DNA of 51,671 nt from a virus (taxonomy: Duplodnaviria > Heunggongvirae > Uroviricota > Caudoviricetes), in IMG/VR virus record IMGVR_UViG_2718218104_000010, one strand, 5' to 3'. Shown piece by piece: positions 45,001 to 51,000 of the stretch. The number at the start of each line of letters is the position of its first letter. Position 1 is the stretch's first letter. Made by a program: the position numbers.

Positions 45001-48000
45001 GGCGTGACCACAGTACAAGAAGAGGAGTTATGCCATGGGTACAGCCCTTTCTCCGATAGTTTCAGAATTCGAAACTACCGAACAAGAAAACAGTTACAAC
45101 GAATGGTTGCGCACTAAAGTAACGTCAAGCCTTGCAGACACTCGCCCCGCAATTCCACATGACGAGGTAATGGCTGAAATGGAAAATCTTATTGCTCAAA
45201 TTGCTGTAACTAACAAGAGCGAGTAATGTTACCCATTTTATGGCTACCGTCTGCTCGCGATGATTTGCGCCAGATCATAACTTACATCGCCAAGGAGAAC
45301 CCACCGGCAGCACGTAGACTAAAAATACGCATTGAAACATCGGTATTACCTCTATCTGAGCATCCGTACTTATATCCACCAAGCGAACGGGTTTCTGGAT
45401 TGAGAGAGATCGTGACCCACCCTAACTACATAATCCTGTACAGAGTAGCTGCTTCAAGCATTGAGATTGTAAGCGTGACACATTCTCGGCGACAATTTCC
45501 CTTCTCTATCTGAGTTGAACAATTTTCATACTCCCTCTTTCGAGGGATTTTTTTGCCCAAAACAACAATTAAAAACTGTTGACACAAAAACAGTTTTTTA
45601 TTGTAGATTACATACACCAACCACCCACCCCGCCCCACAGAACGCCGGGCAATACTTCGAGTTACCAAGCAGTGGTCAGGGGGTAAGTAGCCAGCCCGAG
45701 GCGTATGAACATGACGGCAGGGTTCAACTTTAATAACGATGCAGCAGGTTTTTGTTCCGCTACCCGGCGTTAAGGGGAAATGAGGTCAACATGGATACTA
45801 TCGATCTTGGCAACAACGAATCTCTGGTGTACGGCGTGTTTCCCAACCAGGACGGTACATTCACCGCGATGACGTATACCAAAAGCAAAACGTTTAAAAC
45901 CGAAAATGGTGCCCGTCGCTGGCTGGAAAGAAACTCAGGTGAGTGATATGGATTTCGACACAATCATGGAAAAGGCTTACGAAGAATACTTCGAAGGCCT
46001 TGCCGAAGGCGAGGAAGCTCTCAGCTTCAGTGAGTTTAAACAGGCGCTTTCCAGTTCGGCAAAATCTAACGACTAACGGAGTTAAAGATGGAATTTAAAG
46101 ATTTACTAAAAGAAATCCAGGAAATTGCAGCACATGCACTTCACCAACGTCTGAACGAAGTTGAATTAGAATCTGCAACGAAGAAATACATTGATAATAT
46201 GGCTCGTAATGTGCGCGATGCGTTTACCGGATTGTACTCTGTTTCGGTAACAAACAACCAGAATACTGAAGAAACTGCAAAGCGGATTGCCTCGGTGATG
46301 GGTTTTCATGTCGAGGAAAAGTATTCAAAAAAAGAATTCTGGAAAACTACAAAAAAATTGCAGAGCGAGAACTGTCATCTCCTGCGGCAATCGCTTCTTT
46401 CTATGAGGTAAGTTATTCAGATGACACAGGATTACCGGAACTGCTCTCATTACTTGAAAAATTCGGAATTATCATGAAAGGGACTGCGTCGGCGGATTTC
46501 ACATACTCAATGATGGCTGCTGATGGAGAGCCTTTTCCTCCCGAACTTAAAATAACCCCCGGCAATCATCCGATGGTAACAATAAGAGCAATAGAGAATT
46601 ACTGGTTTAATCCAGTTCAACAATAGTTGGTCTTTGCAATATTTTTAATGGGCCACTACGCCCTTAATCTCGGGCGGCGTTTAACTCTTTATTCAGTAAA
46701 TCAGACTGATACTGATTTGGCTTTGTAATGATACTGTCAAGTTTTGATATATGAAATTCAACATGTTCTGGACAGTTAAAAATGTAATAACCGCCCTTCT
46801 CTAAAAAGCCAGAAAGAGCGTTACAGGCAGGGCATGGTTTGTTTGGCATTTTATCCTCCATTAAGGGCTGAATTAAAAATGGAGACCAACACGCTGCTAC
46901 GTGTGGTCGTGCGCCGGACACAGATAAGAATCCGGCACTGACAGTTTACTGAAAGGATATATCCCTGAAAAGTCAGGGCATAACACGAAAGTGCACGGCG
47001 AAGTCCTTCTCCCTTAGAGCCGTCGTTAAATTTAATTCGACCGTGCGCTTCCGGTTGTGGCAATCCGCGAAATGGCGCGGCGGTAAGTATGGCGGGGTTA
47101 TTCTTTCCCCGTTGAGGACACCGGGTTGTCAGGTTGACCATACGCTTAAGTGACAACCCCGCTGCAACGCCCTCTGTTATCAATATTCTGGTGACATTTG
47201 GCGGTATCAGTTTTACTCCGTAACTGCTCTGCCGCCCTTTTTTAAAAGTGAATTTTGTGATGCGGTGAATGCGGCTCAGCGCACGCGGAACAGTTAAATC
47301 GGTAAAGCGGTCATTTGCTGAGTAACGAGAATGCTCTGTATCCGGCGTTAATTGTTAACTGGTTAACGTCACCTGGAGGCACCAGGCACCGCATCACAAA
47401 ATTCATTGTTGAGGACGCGATAATGGAAAAGTTATCATGTAATGCCAGCACGTCTGAACTTCGTTTCGAAATTGGCGTTATCACTGGAGACAAAACATTT
47501 ATTGAAGACGCCATTAAGCAGAGAAAACTCGAGCAGGACCTGTTAAATGAAGTATGCATTCCTTCAATGCTGGCTCGTCTGGACCTGCTGCAAAAAGGAT
47601 ATAAACAATGAATACAACATTTGCACTCGTTCTGACAGTTTATCTTGTTTCCGGCGAATCTCTTGAGCTGGTGACTGGCTTATACGGTTCAATGAAAGAA
47701 TGCATGGCTGCAGCAGCAGAACAAAAAATTCCCGGTAACTGTTATCCGGTAGATAAAACTACTCACACTAATAATAACGAAATACCGGCAGGACTTTAAA
47801 ACAGCACCGTAATTAATATCCGGTTTCATTTTTATATGCCAGCAATGGCAGGGATTTGTTCACCCTTAAATCTGTAATGAGGTTAAAACACAATGAGTAA
47901 AATCTTTATTTGCGCTGCTATTCCTGACGAACAGGCCATAAAAGAAGATAGCGCTGTTGCGGTGGCCACTGCCATTGAAGCCGGTGATGAGCGTCGCGCA

Positions 48001-51000
48001 CGCGCAAAATTTCACTGGCAATTTCTGGAGCAATTCCCGGCAGCTCAGGACTGCGCTTATAAATTTATTGTCTGCGAGGATAAACCCGGCATACCCCGCC
48101 CTGCCCTCGATTCCTGGGATACCGAATATATGCAGGAAAACCGCTGGGATGAGGAGTCAGCTTCCTTTGTACCGGTCGAACCAGAATCCGATCCGATGAA
48201 CGTCAATTTTGACAAGCTGTCCCCTGAAGTACAGAACGCAGTCCTGGTTAAATTCGACACATGCGAAAACATCACCGTTGATATGGTGATTAGCGCACAG
48301 GAATTACTACAGGAAGACATGGCAACATTCGGCGGACATATCGTTGAAGCGTTGATGAAAATGCCAGAAGTTAACGCCATGTATCCTGAACTTAAACTGC
48401 ATGCCATCGGGTGGGTTAAGCATAAATGTGAGCCTGGCGCTAAATGGCCTGAAATTCAGGCAGAGATGCGCATCTGGAAAAAACGTCGCGAAGGTGAACG
48501 CAAGGAAACCGGAAAATACACGTCTGTTGTTGATCTCACCCGCGCCAGAGTCAACCAACAGAACACTGAAAACGCTGCTGAAAAAACCGGGGCTGTCACT
48601 GTTGCCATTCGCCGCGAATACAAACAGACATGGAAAACACTCGACAATGAACTGGCCTGCGCCCTCTGGCCCGGTGATGTGGATGCAGGAAACATTGACG
48701 GTACCATCCATCGCTGGGCGACAAATGAGGTTATCGACAAGGATCGCGAAGACTGGAAGCGTATCTCAGCATCAATGCGCAAACAGCCCGAAGCACTTGG
48801 CTATGACCGTCAGACTATTTTTGGCCTTGTTCGCGAACGTCCGATCGATATTCACAAAGATCCCGTTGCACTGAACAAATATATCAGTGAATACCTGACG
48901 ACAAAGGGCGTGTTTGAACATGAAGAAACAGACCAGAGCTCTACTGATGCTCTCCAGCCGTCAGCAGCACAAACTGCTCCAGTGGAGACGGCAGAATCCG
49001 ATACTCAAAAAAATGAAATCCTGGTGGAAGCTGAACCATCTGTAGAGCGTGAAGGACCATTTTATTTCGTCTTTACCGATAAGGGCGGGGAAAAATACGG
49101 CAGGGCAAACAAACTTTCTGGTCTGGACAAGGCGCTGGCTGCCGGCGGTACCGAAATCTCAAAAGAAGAATATTTTGCCCGAAAAAATGGCACATACACG
49201 GGCTTACCGCAAAATGTGGATACCGCTGAAGATTCCGAACAATCAGAGCCGGTAAAAGTTACCGCTGACGAAGTAAACAAAATTATGCAGGCAGCCAATA
49301 TCAGCCAGCCTGACGCCGATAAATTGCTTGCTGCATCACGTGGTGAATTTGTTGAAGGGATTAGCGACCCGAATGATCCGAAATGGGTGAAAGGGATCCA
49401 GAGTCGCGACGCTGAGGACCAGAATCAGCCCAACGTGAAACAAAATGAGCCAGAAGCGGAACAAAACAGCCCGGATACGCAACAAAACGGGCCAGAAGAA
49501 CAACAACCAGAACCAGCAGTGCAACAGGAACTGGAAAAAGTTTGCACCGCATGCGGTCAGACCGGTGGCGGCAACTGTCCTGACTGTGGTGCGGTGATGG
49601 GGAACGCAACCTACCTGGAAACATTCGATGAAGAGAATCAGGCTGAAGCTCAGAAAAATGATCCGGAGGAAATGGAAGGCACTGAACATCTGCACAAGGA
49701 GAACACTGGCAGCGATCAGTATCACGCCAGCGATAATAAAACTGGCGAAACAGCAAATCCCTTAATTAAAGTGAACGGTCATCATGAAATCTCATCCACC
49801 AGCAGGTTGTGGCACCATCTGATGATTGACCTTGAAACAATGGGAAAAAATCCTGATGCGCCAATAAACTCTATAGCCGGTAAGTTTTTTGATCCGGCAA
49901 CCGGAGAGATGGGGCCAGAATTCAGCAAAACTATCGATCTGGAAACCGCAGGTGGGGTCATCGATCGGGACACCATTAAGTGGTGGCTGAAACAGTCACG
50001 CGAAGCACAATCCTCCATTCTGACCGATGAAATCACGTTGGATGATGCACTGCTGCAATTCCGGGAATTTATCGACGAAAACTCCGGTGAATTTTTTGTT
50101 CAGGTCTGGGGTAACGGTGCAACTTTCGACAACGTGATTTTACGCCGTTCATATGAACGGCAGGGGATCCCCTGCCCGTGGCGTTACACCAATGATCGCG
50201 ATGTAAGAACGATGGTTGCTCTGGGACTGGTGATGGATTTCGACGCAAGAACGACTATTCCATTCGAAGGTGAACGCCATAACGCCCTGCACGATGCACG
50301 TTACCAGGCGAAATACGTTTCAGCCATCTGGCAAAAACTGCTCCCGAGTCAGGCTGATTTTTGATGTTCAACCCATATCGCCGCCCACCAGCTATAGTGG
50401 CGGCGGTCATGCTGTAAAGGCACGTGACCACATGTACGAATTAACTCTATCTCCAGCAGAGATTAAAGAGATCACGAAATACGAGCGATACACAAAACAG
50501 CAACACCAGTTAAGACTGCACGGCATCCCATTTGTAATCGGCCCTAAAAACGAACCCATAGTTCTCCGCAGGGATATTCCACACGGTCTGACAACGATGC
50601 CAAAAACATCTGAACTGGTTTCTGCTGAACCCGATTTTGAGGCGCTGAACAATGGGAAGACCAAGAAAAAATAAAAAAGATAATGTACTGCCACCGCGGG
50701 TTAGATCGAATGGTTACAGTTACGTGTGGAAACCCGAAGGAAGTACAAGAAGTATAGGGCTAGGAAGAGTGCGGAAAACCAGCGTAGCTAAAGTCTGGCA
50801 AAATTATGAACTGGAAAAAGCAAAACTCCACAACATAATGACCGTAGCTAAATTGTGGCACATGTTTATGGACTCCCCTGCATTTACAGAACTGGCCCCC
50901 CGAACCCAAAAAGATTATCGACAACATCAGAAGGCGTTGCTGATGGTATTCGGAAAAGTGCTTGCTGATAATGTCAAAACTGAGCAGGTAAGAATTTTCA

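Follow-up and report, generated by a model that had tools for sequence, protein, structure and literature searches.

Exonuclease gene and catalytic domain

The DNA analysed here is the IMG/VR virus record IMGVR_UViG_2718218104_000010 (Caudoviricetes), a stretch of 51,671 nucleotides, referred to as the window, which represents a lambdoid prophage type of Escherichia coli O157:H7 integrated next to yccA. Toward its end the gene order is cI-like repressor, relB/relE, ydfA, ydfB, DicF, dicB, ydfD-like gene, exonuclease gene, DUF4224 excisionase-like gene and integrase gene, and it is the exonuclease gene that concerns us. Its predicted product joins a front and middle part related to RecE of the Rac prophage to a C-terminal domain of the DEDDh 3'-5' exonuclease type, at the point where RecE has a 5'-3' nuclease domain of the PD-(D/E)XK type. 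Many genomes of E. coli O157:H7 have a gene that is 100% identical to it at the DNA level and is annotated as "exonuclease" (WP_000034474.1). A preliminary description, made from the nucleotide sequence alone, had placed at this locus an 823-residue exonuclease with the motifs DxE, FD and H-x4-D in its last ~200 residues, an acidic Q/E/P-rich tract and a CxxC...CPDC pair. An independent listing of open reading frames (ORFs) returned the same coordinates and length, and the motifs were located at D646-L-E648, F745-D746 and H796-x4-D801, the acidic tract at about residues 505-548 and the cysteines at C551-x2-C554 ... C562-P-D-C565.

The sole Pfam match of the 823-residue protein is PF16473, the Rv2179c-like 3'-5' exoribonuclease domain, which aligns from profile position 1 to 177 of 177 with an E-value of 3.6e-62 and a score of 209.6 bits against a cut-off of 27. 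All five catalytic residues of a DEDDh enzyme are in place (D646, E648, D746, H796 and D801) and are kept in the exonuclease-type rows of the alignment that also served for the estimates of selection given below. Among solved structures, the T4 DNA exonuclease DexA is the nearest in sequence (8kel; E 1e-6). An AlphaFold2 model, computed from an input alignment of 60 sequences, has a predicted local distance difference test score (pLDDT) above 90 over residues 640-820, and a Foldseek search with this modelled segment again placed DexA first (8ken/8kel; E 3.5e-10; target TM score 0.65-0.72), followed by RNase T, oligoribonuclease (Orn), REXO2, ERI and Cap18, all of them DEDDh enzymes. The domain thus shares its Pfam family, DEDDh residues and fold with DexA (8KEL/8KEN) and with Rv2179c of Mycobacterium tuberculosis; those are single-domain proteins (DexA has 227 residues), whereas here the domain makes up the C-terminal quarter of 823 residues, and is identical to DexA at only about 23-25% of positions. 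From family membership, on which both polarity and substrate are read, we infer that the domain removes nucleotides in the 3'-5' direction.

These results bear out the DEDDh assignment of the preliminary description, which had named in advance a PD-(D/E)XK assignment of the C-terminus as the outcome that would speak against it. In the Pfam scan of the exonuclease protein only PF16473 scores, and neither PF12684 (PDDEXK-like) nor PF06630 is matched; Rac RecE, in the same kind of scan, matches PF12684 with an E-value of 4.1e-28. A tblastn search of the window with the RecE nuclease domain was likewise negative, and we rejected a PD-(D/E)XK identity for the C-terminus.

RecE-related scaffold and its exchange of catalytic ends

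The remainder of the protein provides a second line of evidence. When compared with Rac RecE by BLASTP, residues 262-625 align to RecE 278-591 (E 4e-59), and within this span residues ~470-625, which include the DPNDPKW and four-cysteine (Cys4) motifs, are roughly 80% identical as read off the alignment. The alignment ends at the start of the RecE 5'-3' PD-(D/E)XK nuclease domain, which occupies residues 564-866 according to a review (PMC11611040). Because homology to RecE stops where the PD-(D/E)XK domain would begin, the exonuclease protein is by this comparison a RecE-family scaffold whose catalytic domain has been exchanged for another, and the shared RecE-like linker is the likely junction for the exchange. 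The two proteins thus have a homologous central region, and recE-recT occupies the equivalent slot in Rac; they differ in that RecE has a PF06630 front, a 5'-3' PD-(D/E)XK end and an adjoining recT gene, and the window protein a YdfE_N front, a DEDDh end and no recT next to it.

A conventional RecE-type 5'-3' exonuclease is what some database entries would have the protein be: several phage records (for example OV696610.1, ON470583.1 and PP818812.1) name the DEDDh protein "exonuclease VIII, ds DNA exonuclease" or "exodeoxyribonuclease VIII", and NF007259, the NCBIfam equivalog for RecE / exodeoxyribonuclease VIII, gives a partial match. That match scores 260 bits where the cut-off is 1269 and spans residues 453-625, hence the linker only, and with the negative searches for the RecE domains given above this identity is scarcely credible and already refuted by the domain searches. 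The labels imply a 5'-3' activity that the domain content does not support, and look as if they had been carried over from the shared linker.

Ahead of the linker lie domains assigned as YdfE_N and YdfE_C, through precomputed matches of homologues 70-95% identical over residues 1-345, and a small domain bearing a GPFY...GRANK motif. The last is common to all YdfE-type relatives irrespective of their C-terminal domain, and the motif was seen in P0001, P0003, P0009, P0018, P0019, P0024, P0025, P0050 and P0073 of the set of relatives described below. The Cys4 motif was also considered as a family hallmark and rejected, since it occurs only in an E. coli-type subset and is missing from many full-length relatives. 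Ratios of nonsynonymous to synonymous substitution (dN/dS) against the orthologues in phages Tritos and HannyBb were 0.07-0.12 in the four folded domains (0.07-0.09 in the N-terminal domains, 0.12 in the exonuclease domain), versus 0.3-0.9 in segments predicted to be disordered. By this measure the folded domains are under purifying selection and the gene is not a remnant.

Relatives were collected by a scan of 1.8 billion representative proteins followed by Pfam typing; more than 10,000 library proteins match the exonuclease protein at E<=0.001. Fronts and C-termini occur in all four combinations. A RecE-type front (PF06630; ExoVIII_N) carries a PD-(D/E)XK end in Rac RecE and an Rv2179c-like end in P0004 and several others, and a YdfE-type front carries a PD-(D/E)XK end in P0018 and at locus L095 and an Rv2179c-like end in the window gene. 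The gene for P0004 is directly followed by xis and int, that for P0018 by an overlapping RecT-family gene (PF03837, E 2e-36), and L095, which likewise combines a PD-(D/E)XK end with recT, has a YdfE-type front 88% identical to that of the window protein.

To place these examples in a wider sample we compared two sets of IMG/VR loci, the 80 most similar to the linker of the exonuclease protein and the 80 most similar to the RecE nuclease domain. In the first set 79 of the 80 loci have an Rv2179c-type C-terminus, combined with 62 YdfE-type, 14 RecE-type and three unassigned fronts, and within the fetched flanks RecT or Bet was found at none of these 79; in the second, recT lies immediately downstream at all 80 PD-(D/E)XK-type loci. 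Annealase absence is thus, in these flanks, systematic for Rv2179c-type loci, and judged by gene order the exchanged unit is either the PD-(D/E)XK domain together with recT or the DEDDh domain alone, joined through the conserved linker.

The window itself agrees with this pattern. Searches of its whole length by tblastn with RecT, lambda Bet, lambda Exo, lambda Gam, the RecE nuclease domain and a Rad52-like domain (Erf and Sak4 were not among the queries) gave chance matches only, the best being a 37-residue match to lambda Gam (E 0.003) on the strand opposite to the gene annotated at that place. The PGAP annotation of the identical prophage, from the lysis genes to int (about window 27.9-51.7 kb), holds no annealase; nor does it name an anti-RecBCD gene, GamL, Abc2 and MuGam not having been searched by sequence. 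The statement of the preliminary description that no recT- or bet-like annealase gene follows the exonuclease gene therefore stands, xis being directly next. Lacking an annealase and having a catalytic domain of a 3'-5' family, the locus would not qualify as a two-component recombinase of the Red or RecET kind.

Relatives with other C-termini were also encountered. P0019, P0024, P0025, P0050 and P0073 join a YdfE-type front to a C-terminus containing "KKSLTDAxKKALSLLGFSADVWLGLYD" and resembling Rad52-like annealases; all five match PF04098, only at E ~3e-3 and below threshold, and a PDB profile search with the P0019-type C-terminus found nothing. A Rad52-like annealase is therefore a possible identity for this end, a lead and not a finding. 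P0009 has a YdfE-type front with yet another C-terminus, unlike the other types. The P0019 gene (locus L011, 4693-7837) is flanked by a Gam homologue on one side and a Sipho_Gp157 gene on the other, in a locus without a separate exonuclease.

The similarity to DexA raises another explanation, namely that the enzyme degrades single-stranded DNA or oligonucleotides to mononucleotides during lytic growth and that the RecE-like front is incidental. DexA is the nearest solved relative by sequence and by structure, and the best 150 library matches are mostly stand-alone exonuclease-domain proteins of ~180-250 residues, 40-50% identical to the exonuclease domain. Such scavenging seems unlikely, however: purifying selection acts on the N-terminal domains no less strongly than on the nuclease domain, and the alternation of the latter with the RecE nuclease and recT at one and the same junction speaks for a role in DNA transactions. 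Lambdoid temperate phages, moreover, are not known to break down host DNA for precursors.

Prophage setting and distribution

The positions of the gene, its domains and its neighbours are collected in Table 1. The early-left operon, to judge from its gene content, is a complete version of the dicB operon of the K-12 prophage Qin, where the order is dicA, ydfA, ydfB, ydfC, dicF, dicB, ydfD, ydfE, intQ. Qin ydfE is 89% identical to the window protein over residues 1-255; it is a pseudogene cut by IS2 after ~255 codons, with the exonuclease domain lost, whereas the window copy is complete. The K-12 gene exoD (DLP12) had also been considered as a fragment of this exonuclease family and was dropped, tblastn giving no match; the K-12 fragment is ydfE of Qin.

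Table 1. Positions in the window of the exonuclease gene, its predicted domains, neighbouring genes and Chi sites
Feature	Position	Strand	Residues	Remarks
Exonuclease ORF	47893..50364	+	1-823	ATG start; complete, stop codon included
GAGG Shine-Dalgarno	47879..47882	+		10 nt 5' of the exonuclease ATG; direct sequence reading
N-terminal alpha/beta domain (YdfE_N, PF27430 in newer Pfam)	47893..48507	+	1-205	Uncharacterised
Helical domain (YdfE_C, PF27432)	48625..48912	+	245-340	Weak homology to RecE residues ~278-350; dN/dS 0.09
Small beta-hairpin/helix domain (GPFY...GRANK)	49045..49197	+	385-435	pLDDT 85-95; dN/dS 0.09
Acidic Q/E/P-rich linker	49198..49800	+	436-636	Predicted disordered; pLDDT 32-61; dN/dS 0.3
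Cys4 motif CTACGQTGGGNCPDC	49543..49587	+	551-565	Possible zinc knuckle; low pLDDT
DEDDh 3'-5' exonuclease domain (Rv2179c-like / DexA-like)	49813..50331	+	641-813	Pfam, motifs, model
DicF small RNA	47186..47237	+		Rfam RF00039, 76.9 bits; 96% identical to K-12 dicF; same operon
dicB	47423-47611	+		Upstream, same operon
ydfD-like DUF1482 gene	47608-47799	+		Immediately upstream, same operon
DUF4224 excisionase-like gene (xis)	50432-50674	+		Immediately downstream; no gene between exonuclease and xis
Tyrosine integrase gene	50652 to window end (51671)	+		After the DUF4224 gene
Chi site within exonuclease gene	49796..49803	-
Chi site just past exonuclease stop codon	50385-50392	-		Inside GC-rich inverted repeat CGCCGCCCACCAGCTATAGTGGCGGCGG
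All Chi sites	18350, 26356, 26842, 33081, 35674, 35726, 43974, 49796, 50385	Four +, five -

Related sequence is present in 4,797 of 5,426 complete E. coli genomes, at a median of two places per genome having any, and in 3,527 of the complete genomes a copy extends over 80% or more of the gene. Full-length copies with 86-87% DNA identity occur in the phage records Tritos, HannyBb and mEp460, and the order dicB-ydfD-exo-xis-int recurs in Tritos and HannyBb. This distribution bears on the notion that the gene is a decaying remnant, a RecE gene that has lost its nuclease and recT and acquired a functionless insert. The truncation of ydfE in K-12, the many partial database entries and the rearranged state of the host prophage, with its three insertion sequence (IS) copies, would accord with decay. 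Yet the ORF is intact with all its catalytic residues, its folded domains have the low dN/dS values given above, and full-length or nearly full-length copies are widely kept; selection and conservation effectively refute a remnant, which we regard as very improbable.

The position of the gene in the operon bears on a further alternative, that of an exonuclease directed at RNA or engaged in immunity, whether in anti-phage defence like the ISG20-like "TONDO" enzymes or in anti-defence against a signal or guide such as retron msDNA. The Pfam family takes its name from an exoribonuclease, and RNase T, Orn and REXO2 are among the structural neighbours, as is Cap18, which is associated with the cyclic oligonucleotide-based antiphage signalling system (CBASS). 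According to a 2026 preprint, E. coli is protected from MS2 and Qbeta by prophage DEDDh exonucleases that have auxiliary domains, the ISG20-like TONDO enzymes trimming RNA-phage 3' ends (PMC13344964). TONDO, however, was chosen among hits of <500 residues and is described as sequence-distinct from other defence DEDDh domains (PMC13344964), and the nearest relative of the domain studied here is a DNA exonuclease. The gene, furthermore, stands at the far end of a repressor-controlled early-left operon, and consensus scans for a promoter or terminator of its own returned sites no more frequently than in shuffled sequence; with no convincing promoter of its own, expression in the lysogen is unlikely. 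Taking both sides together, we give an RNA-directed or immune function a low probability. Membership in a known defence system was rejected, the only PADLOC match being insignificant (E 0.03, 12 bits).

The window contains nine copies of Chi (GCTGGTGG) in 51.7 kb, compared with 2.4 +/- 1.5 in shuffled sequences, none of 100 shuffles reaching nine.

Several other features of the prophage were recorded. A relB/relE-type toxin-antitoxin pair (45035-45513, + strand) lies directly 3' of the cI-like repressor gene, where lambda has rexAB. An element of ~1.3 kb occurs three times (23784-25109, 28216-29534 and 37522-38841; 95-100% identical, two copies in one orientation and one inverted) and is probably an IS3-family insertion sequence. 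The lysis genes, which lie between its first and second copies, have the opposite orientation to the Q antiterminator gene, a hint of an IS-mediated inversion and of a defective prophage. At the other end of the window (1-864) a 141-nt tandem repeat, with at least five overlapping 300-nt copies of 91-99% identity inside an ORF at 1..852 (+), is probably a repetitive segment of a tail fibre or side tail fibre.

Possible role in phage recombination

We favour, with moderate confidence, the reading of this locus as a functional gene in the early-left operon of a lambdoid prophage of Qin/Tritos type, encoding a modular protein of the RecE family that performs accessory end-processing for host RecBCD/RecA. 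As shown above, the non-catalytic front (YdfE_N, YdfE_C, the GPFY domain and the acidic RecE-like linker) carries a DexA/Rv2179c-type DEDDh domain in place of PD-(D/E)XK. As the family suggests, that domain would trim free 3'-OH ends of single-stranded nucleic acid with the aid of two metal ions, and its substrate would most probably be DNA, since the nearest solved relative is DexA. The phage probably relies on host RecBCD/RecA for recombination-dependent replication, because it lacks an annealase and any recognised RecBCD inhibitor and has Chi at a density like that of the host. Host single-strand exonucleases help ready ends for RecBCD in E. coli recombination. The phage exonuclease may act as an accessory end processor of this sort, rather than as the resecting partner in a two-component exonuclease/annealase recombinase, and one may speculate that it blunts 3' single-strand tails for RecBCD entry or clears 3' flaps.

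The class to which the locus belongs has been described. Recombination modules of 325 lambdoid phages were surveyed by Zheng, Casjens, Davidson, Amundsen & Smith (Genome Res 2025; PMC12315714), whose main text reports DnaQ-like 3'-5' nucleases in such modules and defines a Tritos class (class B of its Table 1) in which a nuclease and 7-21 top-strand Chi sites go together with the lack of an annealing protein, an SSB and an anti-RecBCD function. As this class is set out there, the window resembles it in having an early-left nuclease and many Chi sites, with neither an annealing protein nor an SSB found and no anti-RecBCD function recognised. The likeness to Tritos itself is close, TRITO_27 having 87% DNA and 85% protein identity over the full 2.47 kb and the same dicF-dicB-ydfD-exo-xis-int order; the window copy differs in residing in a rearranged, IS-laden O157:H7 prophage and not in a free phage. 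Neither the domain junction nor the exclusive recT pairing seen here appears in the main text of the survey (PMC12315714). Our search of the literature on Rv2179c and phage, ydfE/exoD, and DEDDh and prophage found no experimental work on the exonuclease protein. The gene is ubiquitous and annotated, and with its class already in the 2025 survey it is not a new discovery. The preliminary description, right about the type of nuclease, had been silent on the RecE-family front and middle, on the commonness of the gene and on this earlier account of its class.

Several points weigh against the role we favour. DnaQ-like 3'-5' nucleases "usually inhibit homologous recombination", and modules of one or two genes are considered "somewhat suspect", in the main text of the same survey (PMC12315714). 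Rv2179c, the namesake of the Pfam family, is itself an exoribonuclease, and a functional clue was sought in the N-terminal domains and none found. Redundancy is high among the IMG/VR loci, which are E. coli prophages, so that the counts of 79 and 80 do not represent independent events, and many of these loci stop ~2 kb past the gene at the prophage boundary, which narrows the downstream search. Only lambda Gam served as a sequence test for anti-RecBCD genes, with Abc2, GamL and MuGam excluded by annotation alone, and the nine Chi sites lie on both strands of a rearranged prophage, where their orientation is not interpretable. Finally, the blunting of ends for RecBCD is a speculation of our own without direct support.

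A broader proposal, which we offer tentatively and hold to be rather doubtful, is that the YdfE/RecE front is a general lambdoid delivery platform for interchangeable effectors of DNA transactions, the DEDDh version representing a third phage recombination strategy. The effectors would comprise the 5'-3' PD-(D/E)XK nuclease (always with recT), the 3'-5' DEDDh nuclease (never with recT), a probable Rad52-like annealase (P0019) and the P0009-type domain. If this were true, a phage of the DEDDh type would supply only an end-trimming enzyme, feeding its Chi-rich DNA into the host RecBCD/RecA pathway.

Whatever the merits of that broader proposal, the exonuclease protein constitutes a natural domain-swap experiment on RecE. 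Because the front part stays under strong selection when the polarity of the catalytic end is switched and recT is lost, it seems to have a function of its own, independent of recT and of which kind of nuclease it carries; for experiments, the strict alternation of the DEDDh domain with the recE-nuclease and recT cassette is a useful pointer. Since most complete E. coli genomes, Shiga-toxin phage backgrounds among them, contain related sequence and frequently have several copies of it, a role of the protein in prophage induction, inter-prophage recombination and the mosaicism of phage genomes is worth a direct test.

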